Numbered from the stretch's first letter, positions 8,662 through 37,166 are shown. The stretch: DNA of 37,947 bases from Candidatus Moranbacteria bacterium GW2011_GWC2_37_8 (GCA_000992165.1 LBTS01000002.1:1-37947), one strand, 5' to 3'. Notes: generated by a model not told the origin, from the letters alone. A program made the numbers and translations.

Positions 8662-8847
8662 TTTCGCACCTCCGTGCTTAGTTCTTACACTATCGTAATA
8701 GTCCTCGCCTGATAAAACATGCATAAACAACCACACTCCATTTTATAAATTTTTAAAGAAGATATTGTTTATATAAAAAATCTCCAAATTTTAAATTTGT
8801 ATTCTGTATTCTGTATTTTCTACCTCCTACATTCTAATTCCTACCTC

Positions 8848-9087
8848 CTATTCCTTCGGCACCGGATCATATCCTCCATCATTCCAAGGATGACATCTGA
8901 AAAATCTCTTAATTCCAAGCCATCCACCTCTCAACACACCAAATCTTTCAACTGCTTCATACATATAATGGCTGCACGATGGATGAAAACGACAAATTCG
9001 ACCCTTCCAAAACCATGAAGGAATTCCATGGTCGAGCGAAAAAACTTTCTGATAAACCCTAATTAACAGTAAAAAAAACTTTTTCAT
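8848..9087 (-). CDS. yidD: membrane protein insertion efficiency factor YidD
   Basis: [30 protein letters not shown]. Confidence 0.95.
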
Positions 9088-9180
9088 ATGTAAATAATCT
9101 ACATTGATTAGTGACCTTTGTCAATTAAAAGAAAATGGTTTATAATCGACATATAGAGTAGTAGGTTTTCAATAAATTAT

Positions 9181-9208
9181 GTCGTCCCGCACTTGATGCG
9201 GGATCCAG
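9181..9208. repeat. REP-like palindrome
   Basis: GTCGTCCCGCACTTGATGCGGGATCCAG, 27/28 identical to 29231-29258. Confidence 0.85.
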
Positions 9209-9283
9209 ACAGCGCACTAATCAGACTACGCCTAGATTCAGTTTTTCGGATATAACTAAAACAAAAAATTAAAATAAACGAAG

Positions 9284-10192
9284 ATGAAAACAGTTGAATT
9301 CAAAAATATAACATGGATAGATTTTTCTGATCCAAGTGCGGATGATGTTCTTTATCTTCAAGAAAATTTTGACATTCATCCTATTGCTATTGAAGAATTT
9401 GTCACACCTACATATAGAGCAAAAGCCACGCAATATAATAATTGCATCTTCCTGACGATCCACGTTCCCCTGTATGATGCCAAAACCAGAACAACTTTCC
9501 CAGGCGAATTGGATATTGTAGTGACAAAAGACCACCTAATCACCGGGCACAATAAAGAAATTGTAGAACTTAATACTTTTTTTGCTTCACTGGAAGGCAG
9601 CGAAGGCAAACGACGAATTTATATGAGCAAAAGTCCTGCTCACCTTCTATATAGCATTCTCGAAATGCTTTTGGAATCGTGTTTTCCGCGCATTGACCAT
9701 ATTCATGAAAAACTTATCAACATTGAGGAACAAGTTTTCAATGGCAAAGAAAAAGAAATGGTTTTTGAAATTTCAATCGTAAAACGTGACATTCTTAATT
9801 TTCGCCGAACATTGAAACCACAGCGACATATCATTGAATCATTGGGGCAAATGAAAACTGATTTGGTTCCTTCGGAACTTGCTTTATATTTCCAAGATTT
9901 AACAGGAACAAACATCCGACTATGGAACGCGCTGGAAAGCAACAAGGAAACAATTGAATCCATGGAAGAAACAAACAATTCACTGCTTTCAAATAAATTA
10001 AACTTCACCATGAAAGTTCTTACTGTTTTTTCGGCAGTAATGATGCCTATGACAGTTTATTCAAACATACTAGCAATGAGCGCAGACATCCCTTTTGGGA
10101 AAAGTCCACACGCCTTCGCTATTCATTCTTCAATAATGCTTTTGATGTCCGTATTCACCATACTCTTCTTTAAAGCGAAGAAATGGCTGTAA
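9284..10192 (+). CDS. corA: CorA-family divalent cation transporter
   Basis: WIDFSDP, FDIHPIAIEE, LYFQDL, MKVLTVFS, two C-terminal TM helices; GMN motif appears as AMS. Confidence 0.9.
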   Translation: MKTVEFKNITWIDFSDPSADDVLYLQENFDIHPIAIEEFVTPTYRAKATQYNNCIFLTIHVPLYDAKTRTTFPGELDIVVTKDHLITGHNKEIVELNTFFASLEGSEGKRRIYMSKSPAHLLYSILEMLLESCFPRIDHIHEKLINIEEQVFNGKEKEMVFEISIVKRDILNFRRTLKPQRHIIESLGQMKTDLVPSELALYFQDLTGTNIRLWNALESNKETIESMEETNNSLLSNKLNFTMKVLTVFSAVMMPMTVYSNILAMSADIPFGKSPHAFAIHSSIMLLMSVFTILFFKAKKWL

Positions 10193-10194
10193 AC

Positions 10195-10267
10195 AGCTTT
10201 TTAGGCATTAGCTTTTTAGCTTCTTAGAAAAATACCAACTAATCGCAGAATTATTTTAGCTTTTTAG
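10195..10267. repeat. TTAGCTTY octamer array (left arm)
   Basis: AGCTTTTTAGGCATTAGCTTTTTAGCTTCTTAG ... TTAGCTTTTTAG. Confidence 0.8.
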
Positions 10268-10275
10268 AAATCTTT

Positions 10276-10632
10276 ATGATCAATTCTTATAAGGATCTTA
10301 TCGTATGGCAAAGATCCATGGAATTAGTTGTTGAAATATACAGGCTTTCTGACTTATTTCCAAAGTCAGAAATATATGGTATTGTGTCTCAAATGCGGAG
10401 AGCTGCTGTTTCTATACCATCAAATATAGCAGAAGGAAGAAAAAGGAGCACAAGAAAGGATTTCAGACAATTTATCATCATTGCTTATGCAAGTGCATCT
10501 GAATTAGAAACGCAGATTGAAATCTCTAAAAGATTAAATTTTATTAAATTAGAAGAATATTTAAAAACTGATGCTTTATTACTGGAAACTATAAAAATGT
10601 TAAATAAAATGATTTCCACATTGAAAAACTAG
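10276..10632 (+). CDS. four-helix-bundle protein (23S rRNA intervening-sequence protein / TIGR02436-like)
   Basis: SYKDLIVWQRS, FPKSEIYGIVSQMRRAAVSIPSNIAEG, ASASELETQ. Confidence 0.95.
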   Translation: MINSYKDLIVWQRSMELVVEIYRLSDLFPKSEIYGIVSQMRRAAVSIPSNIAEGRKRSTRKDFRQFIIIAYASASELETQIEISKRLNFIKLEEYLKTDALLLETIKMLNKMISTLKN

Positions 10633-10660
10633 AGCCAGCAATCGGAATTAAAATTTAAAC

Positions 10661-10687
10661 CTAAGAAGCTAAGGCCTAATAAGCTAG
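10661..10687. repeat. inverted CTAAGAAG octamer array (right arm)
   Basis: CTAAGAAGCTAAGGCCTAATAAGCTAG; 10661-10672 is the exact reverse complement of 10216-10227. Confidence 0.8.
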
Positions 10688-10693
10688 AAATAT

Positions 10694-12121
10694 ATGCTTT
10701 ACCTATACAATACACTATCAAAATCTAAGGAAATTTTTAACTCTCTCCATCCCGGTAAGGTCGGGATGTATAGCTGTGGACCGACCGTGTATGGCTATGT
10801 TCATATTGGAAACATTCGGGCATATCTTTTGTCTGACACTATCAGGCGATATTTGGAATACATTGGATATGAAGTACGCTTAATTAAAAATATTACCGAC
10901 GTCGGACATCTTACTGCTGACGACGTTGCGCAAGGAGATAGCGGCGAAGACAAAATGCTAGCAGCAGCGCTCAAAGAAAAAAAGACGCCGGAAGAAATTG
11001 CGAAATTTTATGAAACATATTTCAAAAACGTTGAGAAGCAGCTTAACATCATTCCTGCACAATATTTTCCCCGAGCAACCGCTCATGTGCCTCAGATGAT
11101 TAAGATTATTGAAGGATTGATTGAAAAAGGATTTGCTTATGAAAAGAATGGTAACGTGTTTTTTGATGTTACAAAATTTGAAGATTATGGAGAACTTTCC
11201 GGCAACACCTTGGAAAATTTGAAAGTTGGAGCGCGCCTTGAAGAACATCCTGATAAGAATAATCCTTGGGATTTTGCACTATGGCTAAAAGCTCCATCTG
11301 AACATATTTTAAAATGGGATTCTCCTTGGTCAATTGGCTATCCAGGTTGGCATATTGAATGCAGCGCCATGAGCACTGAATATTTAGGAAACACGATCGA
11401 CATCCATACCGGAGGTGAAGATAATATTTTTCCACACCATGAAGCAGAGATTGCTCAAACCGAATGTTTCACTGGACAGAAATATGTAAAGTATTGGGTG
11501 CATGGACGTCACCTCTTGATGAATGGTGAAAAAATGAGCAAGTCAAAAGGAAATCTATACAAACTTGAAGATATCATTGAAAAAGGATTTTCCGCCATGG
11601 ATTTGCGTTTGCTTTTCCTTTCTTCACACCATCGTTCACAAATGGATTTTTCATGGGAAGCTTTGGCGCAGGCACACAAGAATCTGCAGCGAATTAATGA
11701 TTTCGTTTTCAACCTTGAAGTAATTTCAAAAACAGAAAAAGATGGAGATTCTTTCGACATAGTCTCATATCGTGAAAAATTTGAAGCTGCAATGGACGAC
11801 GACCTCAATACTCCTCTCTCATTAGCTGTCCTATATGAAATGATTACAAATATCAATAAGCAAATTGCAGAAGATAAACTTTCAGCAACCGATGCGAAAA
11901 ACGCCTTAGCATTTTGGAAAAAAATAAATTCTGTTTTTGGATTTGTCTTGCAGGGTCAAGCTGAGATTCCTCAAGAAATAAAAGATTTGGTTAGACAGCG
12001 AGAACTTGCTCGTGAAGGAAAAGATTTCAAAAAATCAGATGAACTTAGAGCTTTGATTGAAAAACATGGTTTTATTGTGGAAGATTCAAAAGACGGACCA
12101 ATCGTAAAACCAGCTTCTTAG
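10694..12121 (+). CDS. cysS: cysteine--tRNA ligase
   Basis: [41 protein letters not shown]. Confidence 0.99.
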
Positions 12122-12158
12122 GCATTAGCTTTTTAGGCATAGCTTCTTAGAAAAAAAG

Positions 12159-12198
12159 AAAAGACGAGAGCCACGCAGTTACGCAACTCTCGTCTTTT
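12159..12198. terminator. bidirectional terminator
   Basis: AAAAGACGAGAG ... CTCTCGTCTTTT between cysS and a convergent small ORF. Confidence 0.8.
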
Positions 12199-12220
12199 TG
12201 ATTCTTGCGACACTTGTGGC

Positions 12221-12425
12221 TTAGCGCCTAAAAACTGAACGAATACCCAGAAACGCCAGTCCGCCTAGCACCCCAACGGCCGCGAATACAGGTAAAGCGG
12301 GAGCACCTACAGAAGTTGCAGCAAGCAATCCAACCCCCCTTTGCGCCAAGAGCAAACGAAGACGCTGCGCCGACACCCGCCCCAGATCCACCATACCTCA
12401 CTACCCTTCCTAAACCTTTTTTCAT
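12221..12425 (-). pseudogene. glycine-zipper membrane peptide (67 aa), frameshifted at a G6 run
   Basis: TAAGGAG SD and TTGACA-N17-CAAGAT promoter; removing one G at 12334-12339 gives a coherent Gly/Ala-rich hydrophobic peptide ending at TAA 12221. Confidence 0.6.
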
Positions 12426-12703
12426 GCGAAATACTCCTTAAGTTGTATTTAGTGAGTTTTACCCACTATTAAAATAACTTAGATATCTTGCCATTGTTTA
12501 GCGCCCATGTCAATCTGTGTGCAAATCGTGCACAAAACGCAAACTTTTTGCTGTTGCTAAGCTCTGCACACTTGCTATAATAAACTAGCTTAGTAGCTTG
12601 TAGGAATTAGGTTGTGGTAATTTTCATTTTCGACTTTTTCCCATCTTGCATACTACGTCCCACATCCTACATCCTACATCCTAATTCCTAATTCCTATCC
12701 CCT

Positions 12704-14119
12704 GTGGCTCGAGAATTTCAAAATTTCAAAAAGAAGGAAGCTAGAACATTGGCTGATTTCGGCGATTTACGAACGCCTCCACATAACCTCGAAGCAGAGC
12801 AATCAATCCTAGGTTCTTTAATGCTAGAAAAAGATGCCGTCATCAAAGTTGCCGATCTTTTGAAAGTTGGAGACTTCTACAAAGACATTCACAACACCAT
12901 CTATGAAACAATGCTTGAACTCTATGAACAAAGAGAACCTCTAGATGTTCTCAGTATCTCCAATAAGCTTGATGAAAAAAAAGAATTGGAAAGAATTGGA
13001 GGCTCGAGTTATCTCGCCTCTTTGGTTGGTAGTGTTCCCTCGGCTTCTCACATAGTACATTATGCTAAAGTTGTACAAAAAAAAGCACTACTTCGAAGAC
13101 TTATTCTCGCTGCCAGTGAAATTATTGAGGCTGGTTTTCGCGAGGGAGATGATGTGGAAAAAATTCTTGATGAAGCTGAACAGAAACTTTTTGCAGTTTC
13201 ACAAAAATATATCAAACAGGATTTCATGCCAATTCGTTCAATTTTGGAATCTGCCTTCAACCGAATTGATGAACTTCACCGCGACGGAAACAAGTTTCGC
13301 GGTATCCCGACTGGATTTATTGATCTTGATAACATTTTGGCTGGTCTGCAAAAATCAGACCTTTTAATCTTGGCAGCCCGACCTTCAGTTGGAAAAACAT
13401 CGCTTGCTTTGGATATCGCCAGACATGTGGCTGTTCGCGAAAATGCGGCAGTAGCCATGTTCTCATTGGAAATGGGCGCCGATCAGCTTGTTGACCGTAT
13501 GCTTGCAGCAGAAGCCAATGTTGATCTTTGGAGACTCAGAACTGGACGCCTCAAAAGTGAAGGAGAGAATAATGACTTTCAAAGAATTGGTGAAGCAATG
13601 GGAATCCTTTCTGAAGCCAAACTTTTTATTGATGACACTGCTAGCGCCAACATTATGGAAATGCGAACGATGGCGCGTCGTCTTCAGGCAGACAACAACC
13701 TTGGACTTATCATCATCGACTACTTGCAGCTTATGGAAGGACGCGGTGGAGATAATCGCGTGCAGGAAATTTCAGAAATTTCTCGCGGACTCAAAAACCT
13801 GGCTCGCGAACTTAACATCCCTATCATTGCCCTATCACAGCTTTCTCGTGCTGTTGAATCACGTTCTCCCCAAATTCCTAAACTATCCGATCTTCGTGAA
13901 TCCGGTTCTATTGAGCAAGACGCCGATGTTGTTCTTTTCCTCTACCGCGAAGACAGAGAAAAACCAGACACACCAAATAAAGGTATCGTAAAGATAATCA
14001 TCGCTAAACATCGTAATGGACCTGTGGGCGAAGTTAGCGCATTCTTCCAAGAAAATTCAGCTTCATTCCGTTCACTTGAAAGAATCCACGGCGAAAATCA
14101 AGCTCCTCAAGAATTCTAA
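12704..14119 (+). CDS. dnaB: replicative DNA helicase DnaB
   Basis: PPHNLEAEQSILG, AARPSVGKT, FSLEM, IIDYLQLM, LSQLSR, DLRESGSIEQDAD. Confidence 0.99.
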   Translation: MAREFQNFKKKEARTLADFGDLRTPPHNLEAEQSILGSLMLEKDAVIKVADLLKVGDFYKDIHNTIYETMLELYEQREPLDVLSISNKLDEKKELERIGGSSYLASLVGSVPSASHIVHYAKVVQKKALLRRLILAASEIIEAGFREGDDVEKILDEAEQKLFAVSQKYIKQDFMPIRSILESAFNRIDELHRDGNKFRGIPTGFIDLDNILAGLQKSDLLILAARPSVGKTSLALDIARHVAVRENAAVAMFSLEMGADQLVDRMLAAEANVDLWRLRTGRLKSEGENNDFQRIGEAMGILSEAKLFIDDTASANIMEMRTMARRLQADNNLGLIIIDYLQLMEGRGGDNRVQEISEISRGLKNLARELNIPIIALSQLSRAVESRSPQIPKLSDLRESGSIEQDADVVLFLYREDREKPDTPNKGIVKIIIAKHRNGPVGEVSAFFQENSASFRSLERIHGENQAPQEF

Positions 14120-14121
14120 TT

Positions 14122-14217
14122 CTGTAGCATGTATTTTGTAGAATGTATATTGTATGAAATTCAAAATACAATTCATTTCGTACAATACATGATATTTTAT
14201 ACATAATACATTATACT
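14122..14217. repeat. empty inverted heptamer array pair (TGTA-type / TACA-type)
   Basis: TGTAGCA TGTATTT TGTAGAA TGTATAT TGTATGA versus TACAATACATGATATTTTATACATAATACATTATAC. Confidence 0.75.
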
Positions 14218-14223
14218 ATCCCC

Positions 14224-14808
14224 ATGTATCCCAAAGCTTTCCAAAAACTAATAAAAAATCTTGCTTCCCTTCCTTCTGTCGGTCCAAAAATGGCCGAACG
14301 TCTTGTACTTTTTCTTTTCAAGCAGGATATTGAAAAAATACGTGATTTTGCAGAAAATCTTTTGGAAATAAAAAACATGAGAATCTGCCATCGCTGCTAT
14401 AATATTGCAGAAGGAGAACTTTGTGAATATTGCAAGGATGACAAGCGAGACCAGCATTCAATTTGTGTCGTCGAAGAACCGCTCGACATCATCTCCCTTG
14501 AACGCACGAAAGCTTATCAAGGTTTATATCACGTCCTCGGCGGTGTTATTCAAGTTGGAGATTCCGGCGCTGAACTCAAAATTCCAGAGCTTATCAGCCG
14601 CATTGAAAAAGAAAAAATTACTGAAGTTATCTTTGCAACAAATCCAACCACTGAAGGAGATGCAACTGCGCTATATTTAAAAAGAAAAATCCAACCTCTA
14701 AGCATCAAGATAACTCGTCTAGGTCGAGGTCTTTCAACAGGAGCAGATCTTGAATATGCCGATGAGCTTACAATTTCGGAAGCATTGACAAATAGAAAGG
14801 TTTTATAA
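14224..14808 (+). CDS. recR: recombination mediator RecR
   Basis: LPSVGPKMAERL, C4 zinc finger, ICVVEEP, YHVLGG, ATNPTTEGDATA, LEYADE. Confidence 0.98.
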   Translation: MYPKAFQKLIKNLASLPSVGPKMAERLVLFLFKQDIEKIRDFAENLLEIKNMRICHRCYNIAEGELCEYCKDDKRDQHSICVVEEPLDIISLERTKAYQGLYHVLGGVIQVGDSGAELKIPELISRIEKEKITEVIFATNPTTEGDATALYLKRKIQPLSIKITRLGRGLSTGADLEYADELTISEALTNRKVL

Positions 14809-14827
14809 AAAAATTTACAAGCATACA

Positions 14828-14857
14828 AAAAACCGAAAGCTTTCGCCTTCGGTTTTT
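14828..14857. terminator. bidirectional terminator between recR and rplU
   Basis: AAAAACCGAA-AGC-tttc-GCC-TTCGGTTTTT (one A/C mismatch in the inner stem). Confidence 0.8.
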
Positions 14858-14915
14858 AAAAAAGTATATTCAAAGCATGTCTACATGTTTAAATGTTTGT
14901 ATGCTTAAATGATTC

Positions 14916-15224
14916 TTACGCAATCTTAGTGATTTCCACTTCAGTGAAAAGTTGTTTGTGACCAAATTTAACTTTATATCGTTTCTTTGGTTTATGCTTA
15001 ATTCCCCAAACTTTTTTGTGACGTCCTTGCTCAACAATTGTTCCCTCCACAATTGCTCCAGCCACCAATGGAGTTCCGATTTTCACATCAGTCTCATCTC
15101 CAATGAAAAGCACTTCTTCAAAAGTAAGTTTTGCTCCGTCTTCACCTTCAAGCTTTTCAATCTTAATCTTATCGCCAACAGCGACTTTGTATTGCTTTCC
15201 ACCAGTTTTAATAATTGCCAACAT
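14916..15224 (-). CDS. rplU: 50S ribosomal protein L21
   Basis: MLAIIKTGGKQYKV, IGTPLV, KKRYKVKFGHKQLFT; start moved to ATG 15224. Confidence 0.98.
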   Translation of the reverse strand: MLAIIKTGGKQYKVAVGDKIKIEKLEGEDGAKLTFEEVLFIGDETDVKIGTPLVAGAIVEGTIVEQGRHKKVWGIKHKPKKRYKVKFGHKQLFTEVEITKIA

Positions 15225-15300
15225 GTCATTAATATAGATAATTGTTACTAAATCAGTATACCCCAAAGCAAAAAACTTGTCAATAAAGGGAGTTTTTTGA

Positions 15301-15423
15301 AAATTCCCAATTTCTAATTCCTAATTTCTAATGAATTTCAAATGCCGAATTTTAAACTTTTGAACGATTTCATCATTTAAATTGGAATTTTATTGGAAAT
15401 TAGATATTAGTTATTAGTAATTT
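15301..15423. repeat. empty inverted heptamer array pair (TTCTAAT / ATTAG-type)
   Basis: Left AAATTCCCAATTTCTAATTCCTAATTTCTAATGAAT aligns in register with the reverse complement of 15371-15423. Confidence 0.8.
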
Positions 15424-15428
15424 ATGAT

Positions 15429-17291
15429 TTATTCCAACACTGCCTTAATCCTTCTCACTCCGGCGCTTGAGGCCTCTTCCTTTTGAATCCTGAAGCTTCC
15501 TAGAGCGCCAGTATGCTCTACATGGGGCCCACCACATATTTCCTTACTGAACAGCACCCCATCTTTTTCAGCGGTATAGACGGTCACTTTTTCGCCATAT
15601 TTTGACTCAAAAGCGCCCATTGCGCCTGCTTTTTTGGCTTCATCAAGCGTCATTTCCTCCTTTTTAACGACTGCATTAGCCTCAATTGCATCATTTACCA
15701 GTCTTTCAACCTCTTTTTTCTGTTCATCTGTCATTTTCTCGCCATGTGAAAAATCAAAGCGAAGGCGTTCAGCTGTGATATTTGAACCCTTTTGCATCAC
15801 GTGATCCCCTAAAACTTTACGCAAGGCAGACAACATCAAATGAGCCGCAGTATGAAGTTTGGTCGTTTCCTCTCCTGAATCTTGCAGCCCTCCCTTAAAC
15901 ATTCCAGCTGAAGCAGTGCGAGAAAGTTCTTGATGCTTTTTAAGTTCTTCATTGAACTCAACTTCGTCAACAGTCACATTTTTCTCATTCGCCAGTTCAA
16001 TCGTAAGCTCAAGTGGAAATCCATAAGTCTGATATAAATCAAAAGCATCTTTTCCAGAAATATTTTCTCCCGACATTTTATTAAATTGTCTCAAACCATT
16101 TTCGATTGTCTTTCTGAATTTCTCTTCTTCCTTCTTAAGTTCATCAAAAATAGTTGCGCGTTTCTTGTTAAGTTCGGGATATTGCTCGCTATACATTTGA
16201 ATCACAATTTCAGCCACGTTTACTGAAAAATCTTTTTCAATCCCGATCAATTTTCCATAACGTACCGCACGGCGAATAAGGCGTCTCAAGACATAACCTG
16301 CTCCAGTATTTAATGGAACAACTCCGTCGCCAATCAAAAATGTGCCGGCCTTTAAATGATCGCAAATGATCCTAAATGATTTTGTCACATCTTCACTTTC
16401 AGCATATTTTTTTCCTGAAAGCTCTTCGATTTTCAAAATGATAGCCGAAAATAAATCTGTTAAAAATATGTCTTGGGTATTTTCGCTTACCGCCACCATT
16501 CTTTCTAGTCCGCCACCGAAATCAATATTTCCCTTTGGAAGCTGCTCGAAACCTTTTTCGGTTTTAATATATTGCATGAAAACATTATTTCCGATTTCCA
16601 AGAAACGTCCACAGTCGCAGTTCACGTGACATGGCAAGTCTTTAAACTCAGATTTTTCATGGAGCCCCAATTCAACTCCGAAATCCCAAAACATTTCACT
16701 GTCCGGTCCGCCTAGCTCACCCAATGGCATATTATCAGGCACACCTGCGCGGCTCCACCAATTTTTCTTTTCTTCATAATAGAAAATTTTTCCACCTTGC
16801 ATTCCATCTCTTTCTGAAAAATCAACATCCTTAGCTTCGATTCCAACTTCAGCAAATTTTTCTTTCCAAAAACTCACAGCTTCTGTGTCGCGAGCAATTC
16901 CAAGCTTATCATTACCGCGAAAAACTGTGACGAAAAGTTTTTCAGGATCAAGTCCGATTTCTTTGGTCAGAAATTCAAACATCCAAGCCACCTGCTCTTT
17001 TTTGAAATAATCACCGAAAGACCAATTCCCCAACATTTCAAAAAATGTTGTGTGACGATTGTCGCCAACCTCTTCAATATCTTGAGCTCTGAAACATTTT
17101 TGCGAATCAACTAATCTTGTTCCCAATGGATGTTTTTCTCCAAGAAGATATTGGATCATTGGTTGCATTCCGCTGCCTGTGAAAAGTGTGGTTGGATCAT
17201 TTTCCGGAGTCAACAAAGCAGAAGGCACAATAGTATGCCCCTTGGATTCAAAAAATTTCAAATATTTAGTTCGCAGTTCGTTTGCATTCAT
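15429..17291 (-). CDS. alaS: alanine--tRNA ligase (short form without C-Ala)
   Basis: HTTFFEMLGNWSFGDYFK, IDFGGGLER, GYVLRRLIRRA, HTAAH, ICGGPHV, AGVRRIKA at the C-terminus. Confidence 0.99.
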   Translation of the reverse strand: MNANELRTKYLKFFESKGHTIVPSALLTPENDPTTLFTGSGMQPMIQYLLGEKHPLGTRLVDSQKCFRAQDIEEVGDNRHTTFFEMLGNWSFGDYFKKEQVAWMFEFLTKEIGLDPEKLFVTVFRGNDKLGIARDTEAVSFWKEKFAEVGIEAKDVDFSERDGMQGGKIFYYEEKKNWWSRAGVPDNMPLGELGGPDSEMFWDFGVELGLHEKSEFKDLPCHVNCDCGRFLEIGNNVFMQYIKTEKGFEQLPKGNIDFGGGLERMVAVSENTQDIFLTDLFSAIILKIEELSGKKYAESEDVTKSFRIICDHLKAGTFLIGDGVVPLNTGAGYVLRRLIRRAVRYGKLIGIEKDFSVNVAEIVIQMYSEQYPELNKKRATIFDELKKEEEKFRKTIENGLRQFNKMSGENISGKDAFDLYQTYGFPLELTIELANEKNVTVDEVEFNEELKKHQELSRTASAGMFKGGLQDSGEETTKLHTAAHLMLSALRKVLGDHVMQKGSNITAERLRFDFSHGEKMTDEQKKEVERLVNDAIEANAVVKKEEMTLDEAKKAGAMGAFESKYGEKVTVYTAEKDGVLFSKEICGGPHVEHTGALGSFRIQKEEASSAGVRRIKAVLE

Positions 17292-17334
17292 TATGATAGG
17301 GGTTAGGAATTAGGAAGTAGCTAGTTCTAAATTC

Positions 17335-17846: not shown

Positions 17847-17919
17847 AAAAATTAAATGTCGCGAAGCGACTCGATCATTGGAAATTAAAAATTGGAAATT
17901 GGAAATTTTATAGCAGCAG

Positions 17920-19026
17920 CTATAATATTGTTCCCCCTCCAAGCACTTCGTTGTCATCAGCATAGAACACAGCTGACTGACCTGGCGTAATAGCTTTTTG
18001 TCCTTCCAAAAATTCCACCTCGTATTTCTTACCGGTTGCTGATGACTGATTACTGATGACTGACTTAATTATACCACGCACCAGCTGATGCCGATATCTA
18101 ATCTTAATATTTGCTTCAAGTGGCAATTTGGGCTCATTAGCAATCCAATTTTTAAGCTCAACAATCATGGTTTTTTTGAATATTTTCTCATTCGCTTCAT
18201 CGTTGGTTACTATTAAGCGATTGTTTTTGAAATCTCTTTCAACGACAAAATACGGACCATTTCCTCCAATATTAATCCCCTTTCTTTGTCCAATAGTATA
18301 AAGCTCCAAACCTTCATGCATGCCAATTTTTTCACCCTCCGTGTTTATGATTTCTCCGGGCGACAATTTCAAATTGCGTTTAATAAATTTGGTTGGCGTT
18401 TTTTCAGGCGTAAAACAAAGTCCTTGAGAATCTTCCTTATCAAAAACTGGCAGATTTATTTTTTCCGCAATTTTTCGTATTTCAGGCTTCTTGTATCCTC
18501 CCACGGGAAACAAAATCCTCGAAAGTTGTTTTTGAGAAAGTGAATACAAAAAGTATGTCTGGTCTTTTTCTTCGTCAGATGAAGTGTAGAGATGATATTT
18601 TCCATCAATCATTTCCAGTTTTGCATAATGCCCTGTTGCGACAAAGTCTGCGTCCATTTCAAGCATCTTCTTATACAAAAAATTGAATTTGATTCGCTCA
18701 TTGCAAACTACGCAAGGATTTGGAGTTCGTCCAGCCTTAGTTTCTTCTAAGAAATAGTCTACGACTTCTTTTTTAAATTCTTCTGCGGCATTGACAGTAT
18801 AGAGTGGAATATCCAAAAGCTGGGCCACTTTGCGAGCATCTTGCTGAGATTCAACGCTGCAGCATTTATTCTCCCTGAGTGAATCCTGTCCGGGTTCCTT
18901 CCAGAAATGCAAAAAAACTCCCACGACGTCATAGCCTTGCTCTTTCAAAAGTGCGGCTGCCACCGAAGAATCCACTCCGGCGCTCATCCCCACAATAACC
19001 CGTTTTTTTGGTGCTTCTTTAGTCAT
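17920..19026 (-). CDS. mnmA: tRNA 2-thiouridylase MnmA
   Basis: MSAGVDSS, GRTPNPCVVCN, ATGHYA, KDQTYFL, DSQGLCF, YTIGQRKG, AITPGQSAVFY. Confidence 0.98.
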   Translation of the reverse strand: MTKEAPKKRVIVGMSAGVDSSVAAALLKEQGYDVVGVFLHFWKEPGQDSLRENKCCSVESQQDARKVAQLLDIPLYTVNAAEEFKKEVVDYFLEETKAGRTPNPCVVCNERIKFNFLYKKMLEMDADFVATGHYAKLEMIDGKYHLYTSSDEEKDQTYFLYSLSQKQLSRILFPVGGYKKPEIRKIAEKINLPVFDKEDSQGLCFTPEKTPTKFIKRNLKLSPGEIINTEGEKIGMHEGLELYTIGQRKGINIGGNGPYFVVERDFKNNRLIVTNDEANEKIFKKTMIVELKNWIANEPKLPLEANIKIRYRHQLVRGIIKSVISNQSSATGKKYEVEFLEGQKAITPGQSAVFYADDNEVLGGGTIL

Positions 19027-24407: not shown

Positions 24408-24980
24408 TTATTTTTCTAGAATAACATCCAACAATTCTGGGAATTCATTTGTTCCCATGTCACCCATTGTAAAGTGTCCGTGGCCATTTAATTCAATGAC
24501 TTTTCCTCCTAATGATTGATGATAAATTTCAAGACTCTTTTTGCCATCCTCCTCCTCATTATTTGAAGTAAACATTACGATTTTACCTACTCTATCTTTA
24601 ATGGTTTCATCAATTGGATACACATAAAATTCTTCCCTGCCTTTGTCGCCTTCATCTGGAATTTTCCAAGGAGCAACTAGAATCAATTTATCAACTTTTT
24701 GCTTTGTTTCTCCAAGCCAACGAACAAGAAAAGCACATCCACAGCTATGCCCAATCAAAATTGTATTTTCAGTAACTTCATATTTTTCAAATTCTTTTTT
24801 GAAATTTTCATAATCAGGCGCCCAAGGAGACGGCATCATTGGGGTTTCAGCTTTTATTCCCTGTGCCAAAAGCTTCTCCCTTATCCAAGGCATCCAATGC
24901 TTATCGAATGTCCTATCAGCTAGATTCATCATTTCCTCTTCTCTTCCTGGACAACCATGAATTATGATTATATTTTTCAT
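24408..24980 (-). CDS. RBBP9/YdeN-family alpha/beta hydrolase
   Basis: IIIHG, GHSCG nucleophile elbow, LILVAP, GHF. Confidence 0.9.
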   Translation of the reverse strand: MKNIIIIHGCPGREEEMMNLADRTFDKHWMPWIREKLLAQGIKAETPMMPSPWAPDYENFKKEFEKYEVTENTILIGHSCGCAFLVRWLGETKQKVDKLILVAPWKIPDEGDKGREEFYVYPIDETIKDRVGKIVMFTSNNEEEDGKKSLEIYHQSLGGKVIELNGHGHFTMGDMGTNEFPELLDVILEK

Positions 24981-25090
24981 AACCTTTTAACTTTATGCAG
25001 TTAATTACTCTAATTTGTATTCATATTAGCATTTAAAGTGTATTTTCTCAAGAATAGGGCGTATTTGAATTTTGAATTTTGAATTCCTCT

Positions 25091-25331
25091 GCAACCATAT
25101 GAAGTATGACCTTCGGGTTATAAACTCCGGCGAAAAACAAGTGATGCGCGTTAAAAAATTTTTGCGAGACGACCCAAGAGGCGCAGTGAAAATTTTAATT
25201 GGCTTTCAAAATCTATGATTTTGTCCAGACAATATATACCCGGAGGTGTGAAGCGAAGAACGCAGTTTTTGCCACAGTATCTTCATCAGGTTGCGATTTC
25301 TTTTGTAACTTTTCTATTAAAAGAAAAGTTA
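25091..25331. ncRNA. highly structured intergenic element (ncRNA or palindromic repeat)
   Basis: GCAACC/GGTTGC, ATGAAG/CTTCAT, cUUCGg hairpin, GGCGAAAAAC/GTTTTTGCC, CTCCGG/CCGGAG, terminal TAACTTTTCT/AGAAAAGTTA. Confidence 0.55.
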
Positions 25332-25410
25332 ATCCGTTCTATACATTAGTAATAAAGGAAAAAACTATATTTAATTAATAAAAATAATAAGTTTAATGAA
25401 ATAAAGCCAG

Positions 25411-25478
25411 GGATTCTTCGCTACGCTCAGAATGACAGTGATGCCTTGCCCTGGATTCCCAGTCAAGCTGAGAATGAC
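25411..25478. repeat. two tandem REP-like units ending in AATGAC
   Basis: GGATTCTTCGCTACGCTCAGAATGAC and CTGGATTCCCAGTCAAGCTGAGAATGAC. Confidence 0.8.
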
Positions 25479-25486
25479 AAGGAAGC

Positions 25487-27825: not shown

Positions 27826-27926
27826 TGAATCATGATTTAGGAATTAGGAGTTAGAGTTTAGGAATTAGTAGTTATGCTTGATTCATAATTCATAATTCTT
27901 GTCTTTTGATTCTTGATTCATAATTC
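27826..27926. repeat. heptamer arrays (TTAGGAA-type / TTCATAA-type)
   Basis: TGAATCATGATTTAGGAATTAGGAGTTAGAGTTTAGGAATTAG ... TTCATAATTCATAATTCTTG...TTCTTGATTCATAATTC. Confidence 0.7.
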
Positions 27927-27931
27927 GCCAT

Positions 27932-29212: not shown

Positions 29213-29230
29213 ATTTTTGTTTTCTCTACT

Positions 29231-30510: not shown

Positions 30511-30787
30511 CCCATTAGAAATTTCATATTTATTATGGAATATACGCAATATACGGTTCCATGAAAAACAGCTATTGCTTTTTGTTTTTCTATTTTCTTT
30601 TTGGCCAATTATTGCGACAGCAATTCCTGAGCCCTTGACCATAGATTTGGGTCAAGGGTGTGCTCAAAAAGGAAATATAGCTGGAACCATATATTGCGTA
30701 TGACCCTTTATTATCAGCTATGGATTTTGTTTTTTAATTGCTAAGACTATAAACCATAAAATTCCGTATCTTGAAATTTCTAACGGG
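30511..30787. mobile_element. 277-bp MITE-like element with a long internal hairpin
   Basis: TIR CCCATTAGAAATTTCA / TGAAATTTCTAACGGG (15/16); internal 20-bp inverted repeat 30542-30561 / 30682-30701. Confidence 0.7.
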
Positions 30788-30805
30788 ACAGGGCCATATT
30801 TACAC

Positions 30806-30837
30806 AAAAAAACAGAGGCTAGTTCGACCTCTGTTTT
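30806..30837 (-). terminator. pheT terminator
   Basis: AAAACAGAGG ... CCTCTGTTTT with a T run on the minus strand. Confidence 0.8.
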
Positions 30838-30861
30838 GAGCAACAATTCACAATAATCTGA

Positions 30862-33276: not shown

Positions 33277-33320
33277 ATGTTCCTAAAATTTATAAATAAA
33301 TACTATCCACTAATATTCCT

Positions 33321-34349
33321 TTAAAATTGAGATGTAAAGCGAACATCCCCACTATGAAATAAACGAATGTCATTTATTTTGTATTTCATCATAGCTAATC
33401 TTTCTATTCCAAACCCCCAAGCAAATCCCTGATATTCATTTCGTTTATATCCAGCCGATTCAAATACAAACTGATTAACCATACCAGCTCCTCCAATTTC
33501 AAGCCATCCAGCATTCTTGCAACCAGAGCAGCCCTTTCCACCACACATAGTACAGCTTATATCGAACTCAAAACTTGGCTCCGTGAATGGAAAATAACTT
33601 GGTCTTAGGCGAACCTTTACATCTTTTTTGAAAAATCTAGAAAAGAATTCTTGTGCAATAAATTTAAAATTTCCAACATTTATATTCTTATCTACAACAA
33701 GAGCCTCAAATTGATGGAAGGTGTGTTCATGTGTTGAATCAGTTGCTTCATTACGAAAAATCCTTCCTGGTACAATAATTCTATATGGCGGCACATGTTT
33801 TTCCATATACCTCACTTGTACAGCTGAGGTCTGAGTTCGCATGGCGACTCTTTCATTAGCATGAAGTCCTTTTAGCCAAAAAGTGTCCTGCATATCACGA
33901 GCAGGATGGTTCTTGGGCATATTAAGAGCATCAAAATTATAAAATTCAGTTTCAACTTCTGGTCCATCCGCAACTTCAAACCCCATCGAAGTGAAAATGT
34001 CTTCAAGTTCATTTTGAATTTTTGTAAGCGGATGAAGATGGCCGCGTTTCATTTTTTTAGCAGGAATAGTGACGTCTATTTTTTCCGCAGCAAAATCAAA
34101 ACTTTTCTCCTTAAGTTCTTTTTCTTTCTGCGTGAAAGCGCTTTCGATTTCCGCCTTAACCGTATTTGCCAATTGCCCAACAGTCTTTCGCTCTTCGCCC
34201 GTCAAATCCTTAAGACTTTTCAAGATATTCGTAAAATCACTCTTGCGTCCAAGATATTTAATGCGCAATTCTTCAGCAATCTCAACAGACGTAGCCTCGA
34301 TTATCTCAGCCAATGCCTGCTTTTTTATTTGTTCAATTTTTTCTTTCAT
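33321..34349 (-). CDS. pheS: phenylalanine--tRNA ligase alpha subunit
   Basis: HPARDMQDTF, RTQTS, FHQFE, RPSYFPFTEPS, GFAWGFGIERLAM. Confidence 0.99.
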   Translation of the reverse strand: MKEKIEQIKKQALAEIIEATSVEIAEELRIKYLGRKSDFTNILKSLKDLTGEERKTVGQLANTVKAEIESAFTQKEKELKEKSFDFAAEKIDVTIPAKKMKRGHLHPLTKIQNELEDIFTSMGFEVADGPEVETEFYNFDALNMPKNHPARDMQDTFWLKGLHANERVAMRTQTSAVQVRYMEKHVPPYRIIVPGRIFRNEATDSTHEHTFHQFEALVVDKNINVGNFKFIAQEFFSRFFKKDVKVRLRPSYFPFTEPSFEFDISCTMCGGKGCSGCKNAGWLEIGGAGMVNQFVFESAGYKRNEYQGFAWGFGIERLAMMKYKINDIRLFHSGDVRFTSQF

Positions 34350-34383
34350 AGATAATTCAAATTATAATACAAGATACCAAATG

Positions 34384-35589
34384 CTATATACCAAATACTA
34401 TTCTAACGAATCCCATCTTCCCAATTTTTAAAACTTTTCCATCTAATTCTTTTGTAACCAAGAATTGCGGGTCGAGGTATTTTTCGTCTTCAATTGAAAC
34501 TCCGCCTTGTTCGATTTTTCGACGAGCTTCGCCCATGCTTGAAGCGTTTCCAGATTTCACAAGGACTTCAGTTAGTTTCATTTCTCCTTCGATAATAAGC
34601 TCTAGAATATCTGTCGGGATTTCTTTTTTGGAAAAAGTATTGATGAAATATTCGCGCGCAGTTCTAGCAAGTTCTTCGCCGTGATAAATTTCAGTGATTT
34701 CTCCAGCCAAGCGAAGTTTTGCATCGCGAGGATTCAAAGCATCTTCTTTCATTTGCTTTTCAATTTCCACAATTTCTTCCATGGCAACGCGCGTACAATG
34801 AATAAAATATTTCACAATCAATTCATCGCCCATGCTCATCATTTTTCCAAACATGGAATTTGCGTCGTCCATCAAATTTATAGTGTTCCCCCAAGAAGAA
34901 CTCATCTTGCGTCCGTCAGTTCCTTCAATCAGATTCACCATCATAACATCTTGCGGATGTTGTTTGTATTTTTTCTGCATTTCGCGTCCAGCCAAAAGAT
35001 TGAAACGCTGGTCCGTTCCCCCTAGTTCCAAATCAGCTTTCAGCATTACGCTGTCATACCCCTGCATTAATGGATACAAAAGTTCGCGAAGAGAAATTCT
35101 AGTTCCCTTGTCTAATCTTTTTTTGATATTGTCGCGCGCGATAAATTCAGCCAAAGAAAAAATATCAGCTTGCTCGGAAATTTCATTGTAGGTCAATTTT
35201 CCAAGCCATTCAGAATTTTTATGAGTTTCCACTTTACTCATATCCAAAAGTTTTCCGGCTTGATCCAAATATGTTTCCAAATTTTTATTTACAGCTTCTT
35301 GCTCAAGCATCGGGCGTTCACTTTCCTTGTCTGAAGTGTCTCCAATCACGCCTGTAAAATCTCCGATAATCAAAACTATCTGATGACCTAATTGTTGAAA
35401 ATCTCGAAGTTTCAGTAATGAAACAGCCCGTCCCAAGTGAATATTTGAACTTGTAGGATCAATACCAAGCTTTATGCGAAGTTTTTCCCCATTTAAAAGC
35501 CTCTTTTTGAGGTTTTCCTTATCAATTACTTCATTGACTCCTCTTGTCAAAAGTTCATCAATTTGTTTTTCTAATTCTTTATCTTTCAT
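34384..35589 (-). CDS. tyrS: tyrosine--tRNA ligase
   Basis: KLGIDPT, HLGR, GDFT, YPLMQGYDS, GGTDQRFN, KMSSS, C-terminal S4-like domain. Confidence 0.99.
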   Translation of the reverse strand: MKDKELEKQIDELLTRGVNEVIDKENLKKRLLNGEKLRIKLGIDPTSSNIHLGRAVSLLKLRDFQQLGHQIVLIIGDFTGVIGDTSDKESERPMLEQEAVNKNLETYLDQAGKLLDMSKVETHKNSEWLGKLTYNEISEQADIFSLAEFIARDNIKKRLDKGTRISLRELLYPLMQGYDSVMLKADLELGGTDQRFNLLAGREMQKKYKQHPQDVMMVNLIEGTDGRKMSSSWGNTINLMDDANSMFGKMMSMGDELIVKYFIHCTRVAMEEIVEIEKQMKEDALNPRDAKLRLAGEITEIYHGEELARTAREYFINTFSKKEIPTDILELIIEGEMKLTEVLVKSGNASSMGEARRKIEQGGVSIEDEKYLDPQFLVTKELDGKVLKIGKMGFVRIVFGI

Positions 35590-35668
35590 ATTTCAAGTAT
35601 AAATTAACTAAATGATACATCAATAATACCAATTTAAGCCGATTTTAGCAATACTGACAATATTACCC

Positions 35669-35697
35669 TTGCCAAATCCTCAATATTCTGCTAGAAT
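35669..35697 (+). promoter_or_regulatory. sigma70 promoter of the GGDEF gene
   Basis: TTGCCA-17 nt-TAGAAT with extended TG. Confidence 0.65.
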
Positions 35698-35761
35698 AAT
35701 ACGTGCTTGAAATTCAAAAATTATAGTCAAAGTTTTTTTAAAACATAGGAGGAAGTGCGCG

Positions 35762-36463
35762 ATGTCAGAAGAAAAATCAGCAGATGAGAAGATAAAGGAT
35801 CTCGAAAGTCAACTTAACGCAGCCAACAAGGAACTGGAACGTATATCAAAATGTCTCATGAAAACACAATCAGAAAGGGATAAATTATCGAGACAATGCA
35901 TCGCAGCAGAAAATCGTATAAGTTTGCTCAGTGTCAGACTTGTGGAAAAACAGGAGCGAATTGATTTACTTGAAATCCATGCCCTAGAGGAACCATTGAC
36001 GGGCCTCTATAACAGACGCTACGCCGATCTGCAAGCATCTCGCTTTGAAAATGCAGTGTCGTCCCGCGTTCTGTGCGTCATCGTTATTGACATCAATTAC
36101 CTGAAAAGAATCAACGATAGTTGTGGACATGAAGCAGGTGATCAATTATTAGTTGCATTCTCAAAGAAACTGCAAGAATTTCCAGGAGAAAACAAGACCG
36201 TAGCAAGAATAGGCGGAGATGAGTTTTTAATCATCAAGGCCAAAGATGATAAAAAGCAAGCAACAGCCTACTGCGAAATGATCAGGAACACACTCAATGT
36301 GGGATTTAAGTGCACGGTTGCTGGCGGAGAGATTTTTTGCACAGCGTCTGTCGGTTTTGATATTCACGTTCTAGATGGCAATTTTTCTTTCAATGATCTA
36401 TGGATTTCGGCTGATTTAGATATGTACAAAAATAAGACCAGAAGCAGAGAAGTAAATATATAG
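35762..36463 (+). CDS. diguanylate cyclase (coiled coil + GGDEF)
   Basis: EPLTGLYNRR, DINYLKRIND, GHEAGD, ARIGGDEF, ADLDMY; AGGAGG SD. Confidence 0.95.
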   Translation: MSEEKSADEKIKDLESQLNAANKELERISKCLMKTQSERDKLSRQCIAAENRISLLSVRLVEKQERIDLLEIHALEEPLTGLYNRRYADLQASRFENAVSSRVLCVIVIDINYLKRINDSCGHEAGDQLLVAFSKKLQEFPGENKTVARIGGDEFLIIKAKDDKKQATAYCEMIRNTLNVGFKCTVAGGEIFCTASVGFDIHVLDGNFSFNDLWISADLDMYKNKTRSREVNI

Positions 36464-36508
36464 AAATTCAATACAATTTCAATGCAAAGTCATTAAAAGG
36501 AGGACGTC

Positions 36509-36643
36509 TTGAACAAATCGAGTCTTAAGCCCAGGGCCACTAGAAGTGAAATCAATAGCCATATTAAGAAGCTCAAAAAAGGCGTTGACACCAGAACATC
36601 CAAACAGCTCGAGGATTCTGAAGATCAAGAGCCCAAGAAGTAA
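36509..36643 (+). CDS. 44-aa charged peptide (not in the ORF track)
   Basis: AAAGGAGG SD then TTG; MNKSSLKPRATRSEINSHIKKLKKGVDTRTSKQLEDSEDQEPKK; ends just before the terminator. Confidence 0.5.
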   Translation: MNKSSLKPRATRSEINSHIKKLKKGVDTRTSKQLEDSEDQEPKK

Positions 36644-36656
36644 AGCTCAACGCAGC

Positions 36657-36693
36657 AAAAAAGCCACCCTCGCCTAGCGCGAAGGTGGCTTTT
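36657..36693. terminator. bidirectional terminator
   Basis: AAAAGCCACC-CTCGC-ctagc-GCGAA-GGTGGCTTTT. Confidence 0.85.
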
Positions 36694-36707
36694 CATTTTC
36701 CAAGAAA

Positions 36708-36986
36708 CTACAGGAGTCCTAGTCTTTTCTTTGCTTCGAAAATCTGATGATCATTCATTTGACCTGTCTTTTTCATTTGCTCCAATGTTTTCAAAATGTC
36801 AGCTTTATTTTTCTGAATATTATCCGGAGTCATGACTTTTTTCATCAACTTCTCTCTTTCTTCTGGACTCATCTTTTGCAATTTCTTCATAGCCATGCGC
36901 TGCAGCATGCCCATATTTTGCGGATCCATTGGATCCTTGGATTTCTTGTCATCTGTTTTCTTTTTGAAAGCGTCGAGAATACTCAT
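36708..36986 (-). CDS. Met/Lys-rich helical hypothetical protein (92 aa)
   Basis: Start moved to ATG 36986 (MSILDAFKKK). Confidence 0.7.
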   Translation of the reverse strand: MSILDAFKKKTDDKKSKDPMDPQNMGMLQRMAMKKLQKMSPEEREKLMKKVMTPDNIQKNKADILKTLEQMKKTGQMNDHQIFEAKKRLGLL

Positions 36987-37061
36987 ATTGTATATTAAAT
37001 TAAAAAAGTTATGTTTAAATTTCATTTGAAATTTTCCTGTATAATTCAAACCCATAAGGAA

Positions 37062-37166
37062 CATCAGTCATTAGCTGTAAGAATGGTTTTTGGTCATTAG
37101 TTTTTTAGAAAAAATAGGTGACCAATGACTAATGACTTGTCCTACTTCCAATGACCATTGTTACTA
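37062..37166. repeat. inverted heptamer arrays (GTCATT / AATGAC-type)
   Basis: CAGTCATTAG...TGGTCATTAG versus GACCAATGACTAATGACTTG...CCAATGACCATTG. Confidence 0.65.

Follow-up and report, generated by a model that had tools for sequence, protein, structure and literature searches.

In the contig LBTS01000002.1 of Candidatus Moranbacteria bacterium GW2011_GWC2_37_8 (GCA_000992165.1), degenerate tandem arrays of 7- or 8-nt words lie at many junctions between housekeeping genes, and one pair of them brackets a small gene for a four-helix-bundle protein (PF05635, 23S_rRNA_IVP). We conclude that these arrays are probably the arms of a family of palindromic cassettes akin to the intervening sequences (IVSs) of rRNA, and that most copies in this genome are gene-less, non-autonomous relatives that behave as selfish DNA. 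A full cassette would consist of a 5′ arm of about four to five tandem 7- or 8-base words, a PF05635 gene, and a 3′ arm with the reverse-complement sequence of the 5′ arm. Behind this reading stand direct observations of the architecture of the arrays, their association with the gene, a dose relation across genomes, turnover at orthologous junctions, insertion in frame into coding sequences, and the absence of selection on the RNA strand. A preliminary description of the contig had taken the arrays for leftovers or non-autonomous forms of the four-helix-bundle unit; the bracketing of every PF05635 gene of the genome, the words that these genes' flanks share with the arrays, the correlation with copy number, and the swaps at junctions reported below support this.

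The window, that is, the whole stretch of DNA analyzed here, is this entire contig (37,947 nt, or 37.9 kb; contig C2 of the genome that we label G000). The genome comprises 826 kb in 48 contigs, is ~80% complete, and has a G+C content of 37%. The gene content of the window is that of a housekeeping region (dnaK, grpE, hrcA, yidD, corA, cysS, dnaB, recR, rplU, alaS, mnmA, pheST, tyrS, and secF), and no Rfam family (rRNA included) or tRNA was matched in it. The relatives used for comparison have ultra-small genomes of 0.7–1.4 Mb, and the close homologues of the four-helix-bundle gene in the window come from Patescibacteria (CPR, the candidate phyla radiation). Genes were called with a home-made caller, which assigns starts crudely and misses short genes such as yidD, and counts by gene context are therefore approximate.

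Results and Discussion

The PF05635 gene of the window (10276..10632, plus strand, 118 aa; E = 6e-39, with PDB homologues 2gsc and 2rld) sits between corA and cysS. Its 5′ arm, with the words AGCTTTTT/AGGCATT, occupies 10195..10227 on the plus strand, 3 nt past the corA stop, and its 3′ arm, CCTAAGAAGCTAAGGCCTAATAAGCTAG, occupies 10660..10687 on the same strand and ends 6 nt ahead of the cysS start. The genome holds four PF05635 matches in all, and inverted arrays flank every one of them, with a different word in each case: AGCTTTTT, AGTAACT, AAATTGTT, and AATTTCC. These words recur far from the genes. A lower-threshold scan of the genome yielded 252 arrays, the set on which our pairing and word counts are based, and 97 of these lie within one mismatch of one of the four resident cassette words.

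An independent sample of 80 loci carrying relatives of the window protein, drawn from many phyla, displays the same bracketing. At the 77 loci with both flanks available, flank complementarity is above the 99th percentile for shuffled pairs of flanks in 36 cases and reaches a score of at least 16 in 59 (the 95th percentile of the null is 15), with a median score of 19 vs 9 for the shuffled flanks. Period 7 is found in 36 of the upstream and 41 of the downstream flanks and period 8 in 6 and 9, with at most 2 for any other period. Likewise, 57 of 83 cassettes from 30 relatives have an arm score of at least 14. The similarity of the arms tracks the identity of the proteins (Mantel r = 0.13, p = 0.002 for 59 loci; r = 0.30, p = 0.001 for 57 cassettes), with mean arm similarity at 0.20 below 25% protein identity, 0.41 at 50–70%, and 0.70 above 70%, which argues that gene and arms travel together. 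Among the high-scoring PF05635 cassettes, those at L131, L132, L138, and L140 (relatives G020, G011, G018, and G021) have arms with a 9-nt period, of the type AAAGTTYNT.

The gene-less hairpins and single arms share words with resident or related cassettes and are therefore best read as gene-less, non-autonomous relatives of them. The arms of gene-less modules are 88–98% identical over 30–58 nt to cassette arms in two other genera. When the loop cores were searched as possible remnants of the open reading frame (ORF), blastn-short matches were confined to the arms and reached at most 2–11 nt into the ORF ends. Set beside miniature inverted-repeat transposable elements, the modules have arms that match those of the full cassette and loops in which no ORF remnants were found. 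The loops are mostly unrelated to one another, the exception being the AATTTYGAAT family, which has a conserved core of ~47 nt.

The preliminary description had raised the question of whether array load follows the copy number of the four-helix-bundle gene across genomes, and it does. For each genome, we scored both the PF05635 matches and the occurrences of an AG-phased, period-7 pattern of five units, and the two correlate positively (Spearman rho = 0.66) over 150 Patescibacteria genomes, sampled evenly over the phylum (130 genera) and including one unpublished genome (G179); rho is 0.49–0.59 in 31 relatives. In the set of 150, the median number of pattern matches is 1, 3, 17.5, 32, and 66.5 for genomes with 0, 1, 2–3, 4–6, and 7–20 copies of PF05635, respectively.

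Synteny from grpE to mnmA is retained across the family, and the occupants of orthologous junctions differ from genome to genome. Between corA and cysS, the genomes G004, G009, and G006 have a spacer of just 2, 12, and 14 nt, respectively. G028 has a hairpin of the AGCTT type without a gene there, and G014 and G017 have single arrays. A cassette occupies this junction in G000 and G018, where its arms are of the AGCTT type, and in the congener G001, where they are of the TAGGA type and the protein is only 68% identical. At dnaB–recR, G000 has a TGTATA hairpin and both congeners have an AGCTT one; different words are found in G012, G018, G007, G014, G028, and G023. The spacer of G008 is occupied by a full cassette, whose arms are of the AATTTTA type, and that of G004, G019, G009, and G010 is empty. 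Both junctions, gene-less in some genomes, therefore carry the gene in others. When G000 and G002 are aligned at dnaB–recR, the coding flanks are ~75–88% identical per 60-nt block, and the spacer between them has the same length and layout with no homology. Arrays are gained, lost, and swapped faster than the neighboring genes diverge.

The arrays pair with one another much as the cassette arms do. A reverse-complement partner lies within 160 nt of 141 of the 252 arrays, vs 9 of 252 random genomic control segments, and of 124 of the 190 intergenic arrays. Neighboring arrays that are at most 100 nt apart are inverted complements in 42 of 53 cases, compared with 15% of random array pairs. Folding of nine segments of the window gave strong hairpins in five (12584–12702, 14117–14223, 15296–15428, 14809–14915, and 37062–37166), with z scores from −2.7 to −5.2 and 0–2 of 200 shuffles equally good. 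The other four do not fold in this way: 27826–27931 and 8786–8851 each consist of two unlike arrays that adjoin, and 34350–34403 and 17292–17334 are single arms. The statement that the arrays often form empty inverted pairs is thus right for five of the nine segments and wrong for the four made of single arms or unlike neighbors.

The five hairpins occupy different junctions; in the order given here, the first, second, fourth, and fifth are gene-less. The first (12586..12702, plus strand; minimum free energy (MFE) −23.6, z −3.9) has the arms TAGGAAT and ATTCCTA and ends 1–6 nt ahead of the dnaB start. The second (14119..14217, plus strand; MFE −23.1, z −4.1) has the arms TGTATAN and NTATACA and fills the dnaB–recR spacer. 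Between the convergent genes recR and rplU (14814..14915, no strand assigned; z −5.2), array arms at 14814–14829 and 14877–14915 surround a classic terminator hairpin (~14833–14858). The fourth (15301..15432, minus strand; z −2.7) has the arms AATTYCY and RGRAATT around a 59-nt core and lies between the rplU start and the alaS stop. The fifth (37062..37166, minus strand; MFE −26.4, z −3.3) has arms of the TTGGTCA/TGACCAA type, a word that we take to be STRR2, one of the STRR1–3 words (short tandemly repeated repetitive sequences, STRR) of heterocystous cyanobacteria, and lies between the secF stop and the start of the next gene. Two modules of the window, the one at recR/rplU and one downstream of cysS, enclose a terminator hairpin in their loop. 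Most relatives carry an extra small gene of 0.4–1.4 kb between recR and rplU that is absent from this window; ahead of that gene stands a conserved TTG...TATAAT-like motif, overlapping the recR stop (the equivalent of window 14800–14812).

The words differ from family to family around a conserved core. In the 5′ arm of the cassettes, AG outnumbers CT in 51 loci vs 1, and TAG outnumbers CTA in 44 vs 1. The phased logo reads A (0.82) G (0.80) and five variable positions, with T (0.53) ahead of the next unit. Because an inverted repeat is the same on both strands, the placement of the AG arm on the 5′ side is a property of the palindrome and not of the orientation of the gene. The longest in-phase AG chain has 4, 5, or 6 units in 12, 20, and 9 loci upstream and in 5, 28, and 8 loci downstream, and shuffled flanks give a maximum of 4. 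Both PDB homologues, 2gsc (E = 1.5e-24) and 2rld, have five chains per entry, and the available text on Xcc0516 describes a toroidal homopentamer (PMC4990558). The five-unit mode fits one word per subunit of such a pentamer. In that case, a pentameric four-helix-bundle protein would recognize five (Y)AG-cored words of a single-stranded arm and so help to spread or maintain the arms. A functional analogy is provided by the trp RNA-binding attenuation protein (TRAP), a ring-shaped 11-mer that reads (G/U)AG triplet repeats in trp leader RNA with one core per subunit. The likeness consists in a short AG-containing core per subunit, read at fixed spacing on single-stranded nucleic acid. TRAP differs in being an 11-mer of another fold with another spacing, and the binding proposed here for PF05635 is itself conjectural. 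The two weaker PF05635 copies of the genome carry non-AG words; together with the two arm configurations found in gene-less modules (see below), this suggests that the protein has several subfamilies that differ in their word.

Periodicity was surveyed over the whole genome as lag-autocorrelation segments with a score of at least 12, against a null of order-2 Markov simulations of coding and noncoding sequence. Period 7 accounts for 146 segments (109 of them noncoding) and period 8 for 40, far above the 0–0.6 per period of the Markov nulls; periods 9 and 12 give 15 and 8, the remaining periods from 2 to 13 give 0–4 each, with no more than 3 for any of 2–6, 10, and 11, and 14 and 21 appear as multiples. 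Among periods, clear enrichment is limited to 7 and 8 plus multiples. The 252 arrays have a median length of 4.4 units with a mode of 4–5, 190 of them lie outside called genes, and 148 of the 559 spacers of at least 40 nt contain one. Their consensus words fall into 36 clusters, the largest of which are AAAATTC (52 arrays), AACTAGT (32), AATCATG (24), and AAATTGTT (23).

Simple-sequence repeats (SSRs) that arise by polymerase slippage with an intrinsic preference for 7 nt, the link to the four-helix bundle being incidental, could also yield tandem heptamers. Heptamer SSRs are over-represented in many bacteria and have been explained by the footprint of the polymerase (Mrazek 2007, as cited in PMC4692102), and according to the available text of PMC4990558, unit numbers differ among Coxiella strains. 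However, the confinement of clear enrichment to periods 7 and 8 and their multiples leads us to reject a generic slippage null. Slippage also fails to explain the excess of reverse-complement partners, the bracketing of PF05635 genes (4/4 here and 59/77 in the independent sample), the dose relation, the swapping of word families at a single junction, and the (Y)AG core in 51 of 52 loci. We regard this origin as highly improbable.

The arrays were said to hug start or stop codons, and this holds genome-wide: over 37 co-directional modules, the 5′ arm lies a median of ~7 nt from the stop codon, and the 3′ arm ~8 nt from the next start. The elements would settle wherever they are tolerated, in stop-to-start spacers of 2–25 nt, around terminators, and in frame in permissive surface loops of proteins. 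Insertion into spacers that originally measured 2–25 nt would leave arrays close to both codons. A further claim, that the G/T arm follows stops and the C/A arm precedes starts, did not survive: it applies to 16 of the 37 modules (p = 0.51), the AG-phased arm being first in 10, the CT-phased arm first in 6, and neither in 21. Since an inverted pair is identical on both strands, a rule of orientation relative to the host genes is in fact ill-posed. Arrays that flank whole host genes, considered for 5′/3′ pairing of the mRNA as suggested by cysS, were rejected as a separate class: at distances above 300 nt, 13 of 59 are complementary vs 15% at random, which is no excess.

The position of the arms at codons is also what would be expected of host regulatory RNA elements, either intercistronic stem-loops or repeated sites bound by an RNA-binding protein, which would tune translation, coupling, or mRNA processing in housekeeping operons. 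Translational or transcriptional roles, and a protein that binds the repeats, have been suggested for TAACTGA repeats and Nostoc heptamers in the accessible parts of two reports (PMC4679880; bioRxiv 10.1101/2022.06.06.494920), and RNase III, which could process such stems, is encoded in this genome (C15:28689-29372). Shine-Dalgarno (SD) motifs (GGAG/GAGG, 4–20 nt upstream) occur in 32 of 583 confident genes, in 0 of 62 genes with arrays vs 32 of 521 others, starts being crudely called. These numbers suggest that initiation in this genome is largely SD-independent. As SD motifs are rare genome-wide and the start calls crude, we give low weight to the idea that arrays displace them.

If the stems functioned as RNA, G·U mispairs should be tolerated on the transcribed strand and A·C mispairs should not. 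G·U does not outnumber A·C in 55 co-directional intergenic modules (55 vs 69) or in the arms of 59 cassettes (67 vs 72). Nor do array spacers fold better in the sense than in the antisense direction (63 vs 50, p = 0.35), unlike array-free spacers (188 vs 91, p = 3e-12). We therefore see no selection on RNA structure. In this respect the palindromes resemble features of the DNA level, unless they arose too recently for RNA selection to have left a trace. The preliminary description had entertained an oligomeric protein that reads a periodic code in RNA. The periodic code and the oligomer are in keeping with the (Y)AG core at 7-nt spacing, the mode of five, and the pentameric homologues; nothing points to reading on RNA, as G·U is not in excess on the transcribed strand. 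A regulatory role is further opposed by orthologous operon junctions that carry other words or nothing in relatives, by arrays within coding regions, and by the occurrence of both arm configurations. On balance, we consider host regulatory RNA an unlikely explanation, and the selfish cassette family remains our preferred one.

Arrays also enter genes. We found 36 arrays wholly within 25 confident genes (≥250 aa), and these contain 0 stop triplets in the frame of the gene and 36 in each of the other frames, the zero following from the arrays having been called inside open frames. The recurrent peptides of in-frame arrays include VTSNQQ, VTSYQL, SVISNQSS, IMNHES, and ESRIKNQ; in the window, a CTGATGA-type array within mnmA (18039..18063, minus strand) is translated in frame as SVISNQSS. 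In LigA, GCAACCA-like variants appear, as read from the sequence, to substitute for GTAACTA exactly where TAA or TAG would be in frame. An alignment of LigA from 19 genomes reveals lineage-specific inserts at the same few loops, the protein measuring 697 aa with none, 764–766 aa here, and 867 aa in G008. Four to five insertion hot spots can be distinguished in LigA (C16:25774-28068 in G000; loci L021-L040), which are used independently in different genera. In G008, LigA has ~100 additional residues, among them repeats of the sequence HLSRVLDILSQGEKK, which form a separate repeat family translated in frame.

In-frame palindromes are known from Rickettsia, where fixed palindromic elements of 100–150 bp lie in frame in protein-coding genes at tolerated surface positions. 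The arrays resemble them in being palindromic insertions in frame at tolerated positions of proteins. The Rickettsia elements differ in that they are not built of heptamer words and are not known to have an associated cassette gene.

Several observations weigh against deriving the arrays from PF05635 cassettes. The abundant word families GAATCAT and GTTATAA have no resident cassette in this genome. Seven of the 55 genomes without a PF05635 match still contain at least 10 array matches. The arms of the cassettes themselves supply part of the dose relation, by our estimate at most ~1.5 matches per copy vs the 6–8 observed, and related genomes are non-independent samples in it. The five-unit mode fits a minimum stem of ~30–35 bp equally well as a pentamer. 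No transposase, nuclease, or reverse transcriptase linked to the arrays was found, and RVT_1 had no match in this genome, which is 80% complete. The only Y1 transposase-like gene of the genome (C3:3600-4335) has on each side a copy of one 16-nt sequence that contains a palindrome (AGTCGAGGACGGTCCT), and not an array. Finally, since the loops are unrelated and no match extends into the interior of the ORF, copying and pasting of the whole element is not demonstrated, and the arms could be built in place.

The Y1 gene (PF01797, 31.9 bits; C3:3642-4280, a 213-aa ORF) invites comparison with REPINs, hairpins of repetitive extragenic palindromic (REP) sequences that are associated with REP-associated tyrosine transposases (RAYTs). 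A Y1 transposase of the RAYT or IS200 type might mobilize the arrays in trans by acting on DNA hairpins, the four-helix-bundle gene being frequent cargo. The architecture is akin to that of REPIN–RAYT systems, in which, partly as described in PMC3116915, a gene is flanked by its own repeats and many spacer hairpins are gene-less. The Y1 gene of this genome, however, has a different flanking palindrome, and the first 8 kb of its contig are free of arrays. Each variant of the four-helix-bundle gene goes with an arm word of its own, which speaks for the cassette gene and not for a single transposase. Mobilization of this kind therefore seems very unlikely to us. The locus at C3:3600-4335 itself looks like a RAYT-like gene with its own REP-like repeat.

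The arms might instead be made de novo, by templated addition of repeats at DNA ends or hairpin bases, carried out by a polymerase or reverse transcriptase with an Avd-like partner, without copying of the whole element. Such addition would leave inverted arrays to either side of a site. The loops are unrelated while the arms share words, arms surround pre-existing terminators, and the (Y)AG arm is always 5′ on both strands, all of which would suit such a process; PF05635 moreover resembles Avd, the partner of the reverse transcriptase in diversity-generating retroelements (DGRs), as set out in the open text of PMC10053308. Against this are the missing RVT_1 match in a genome that is 80% complete and the unknown template, and the proposal is entirely inferential. 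We judge it distinctly unlikely. The absence of RVT_1 also means that the PF05635 genes here are not DGR Avd genes in context, and the window cassette has corA and cysS as its neighbors.

Among known systems, the cassettes resemble most nearly the S23p-type IVSs of Coxiella burnetii and Leptospira, in which, in the text available to us of PMC4990558, a PF05635 ORF lies within a long stem of terminal inverted repeats. In the Coxiella IVS, RNase III cuts a terminal stem of 28 bp, and ahead of the S23p ORF stand two or three GACAGAT heptamers in tandem, variable among strains (PMC4990558, same sections). Here too, heptamers are found directly 5′ of the ORF, and the Coxiella word GACAGAT contains the CAG core seen in our arrays. 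With an RNase III gene in this genome, transcribed stems may be cut as in the rRNA IVSs of Coxiella, a step that is conjectured for the arms here. The elements differ from IVSs in lying between or inside protein-coding genes and not in 23S rRNA, in mostly lacking an ORF, and in number, with dozens to hundreds per 0.8-Mb genome and many word families.

The arrays had also been likened to the STRR heptamers of cyanobacteria, and the comparison is fair: they are tandem 7-nt units, mainly intergenic (190/252), and over-represented relative to other periods. In the consulted portions of the literature, heptamer SSRs are over-represented and intergenic in Xanthomonas and Nostoc (GGGNATC), with some inverted, and were without detailed literature (PMC4692102); 169 sets of TAACTGA repeats in Beggiatoaceae, Cyanobacteria, and Bacteroidetes lie mostly just 5′ of start codons with no evident mechanism (PMC4679880); and Nostoc heptamers occur near start codons, their binding protein unidentified (bioRxiv 10.1101/2022.06.06.494920). 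These repeats share with ours the intergenic tandem 7-mers of 2–6 or more units near starts, of which some are inverted and some translated in ORFs, and words of the TCAGTTA and TTGGTCA types are also present in this genome. As far as these sources go, the literature treats one word at a time; here many words have one architecture, and copy number scales with a gene. The terms "four helix", "S23", and "intervening sequence" have 0 occurrences in the text of PMC4679880 that was available, and no paper tying heptamer arrays in general to PF05635 cassettes was found in open-access text.

REPIN–RAYT systems offer the other close parallel, again in part after PMC3116915: a single-copy gene with cognate palindromic repeats, gene-less hairpins in spacers, and a repeat family for each variant. 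In contrast to these, the gene here encodes a four-helix bundle of ~120 aa without a known catalytic motif and not a transposase of the HUH (histidine–hydrophobic–histidine) type, and the arms are arrays of words and not a fixed palindrome. The element thus works like an IVS or a REPIN-type selfish palindrome, yet is outside both, as it is not in rRNA and has no HUH transposase.

Other Features of the Window

Tandem Repeats Finder (TRF) called 10 of the 11 array sites listed in the preliminary description periodic, with periods of 7, 8, or 14 (extents 8798–8850, 12649–12697, 14119–14216, 14877–14911, 15301–15422, 17877–17907, 25064–25085, 27837–27926, 34366–34401, and 37119–37137). The eleventh (17295..17325, minus strand), a short solo array just 5′ of the alaS start, does have three TAGGAAT-like units visible in the sequence; it lies below the detection thresholds and was missed by both TRF and the genome scan. 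The preliminary description had noticed no arrays around the orphan genes. By our count, the window has 0 arrays within 1–5700 and 14 in the remainder; ~2 would be expected in 1–5700, and the difference is not significant.

The remaining arrays are described from left to right, without a strand where none was assigned. Two groups lie to the left of the range covered by the preliminary description: three short period-8 arrays of the TACAAATN type in the dnaK–grpE spacer (5742..6248), and TTTTGAA ×7 and TTCGAAA ×3 arrays between the grpE start and the hrcA stop (6839..7015). Directly 3′ of the yidD stop, at 8786..8850 on the minus strand, are two unlike solo arrays that are not self-complementary, TAGGAGG-type ×4, whose first TAG is the yidD stop codon, followed by CAGAATA ×3. 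A AGCTTCTTAGGCATT array (12112..12150, plus strand) overlaps the cysS stop and is followed by a terminator-like hairpin at ~12160–12195. Solo arrays of ATTGGAA ×4.4 (17877..17908, 3′ of the mnmA stop) and of perfect TTTGAAT ×3.1 (25063..25086, by TRF) come next. At 27826..27926, two arrays of different families, TTAGGAA ×4.6 and ATTCATA/CTTGATT ×6, adjoin and are mutually noncomplementary (z −1.0), and a period-14 (2 × 7) array at the junction of the tyrS stop and the pheS start (34364..34403) forms no hairpin (z 0.0).

Metagenome contigs of run X1 terminate at arrays near 10199–10221 and 17878–17907. The array at 10195–10227 is common to 3–9 community contigs per place that diverge beyond it; these contigs are uninformative about array polymorphism.

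Two further observations concern sequences other than the arrays. GC-richer palindromic segments at 9170–9215 and 25395–25480, among them GTCGTCCCGCACTTGATGCGGGATCCAGA and a pair of stretches containing CAGAATGACA / GAGAATGACA, are unrelated to the heptamer arrays, and these segments may be part of another dispersed repeat family. A 240-nt noncoding stretch at 25090–25330, after the gene at 24408–24980, has no Rfam match. Related community contigs vary within it, with several small deletions (25107–25125) and a replaced segment of ~90 nt (25162–25252), and it may be a variable structured RNA or a repeat.

Conclusions

A wider proposal, which we put forward tentatively and hold to be possible though doubtful, is that PF05635 pentamers are sequence-specific readers of five (Y)AG heptamer words and form, with inverted arms, a widespread mobile palindromic element that has no transposase. 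The STRR, TAACTGA, and similar repeats of Cyanobacteria, Bacteroidota, Xanthomonas, Patescibacteria, and others would then be its gene-less offspring, and rRNA IVSs would simply be those copies whose insertion site was in rRNA.

For decades, bacterial heptamer repeats have been listed, in the sources available to us, without an origin or a binding protein, and the link to one gene family gives a concrete candidate. For the organism, ~250 arrays in a 0.8-Mb genome have practical and biological consequences: metagenome contigs are broken and spurious ORFs inflated, and arrays add 7–30 residues to essential enzymes such as LigA, RecG, and MnmA. For the family, the rRNA intervening sequences would be recast as just one of the places at which a far more general element inserts.

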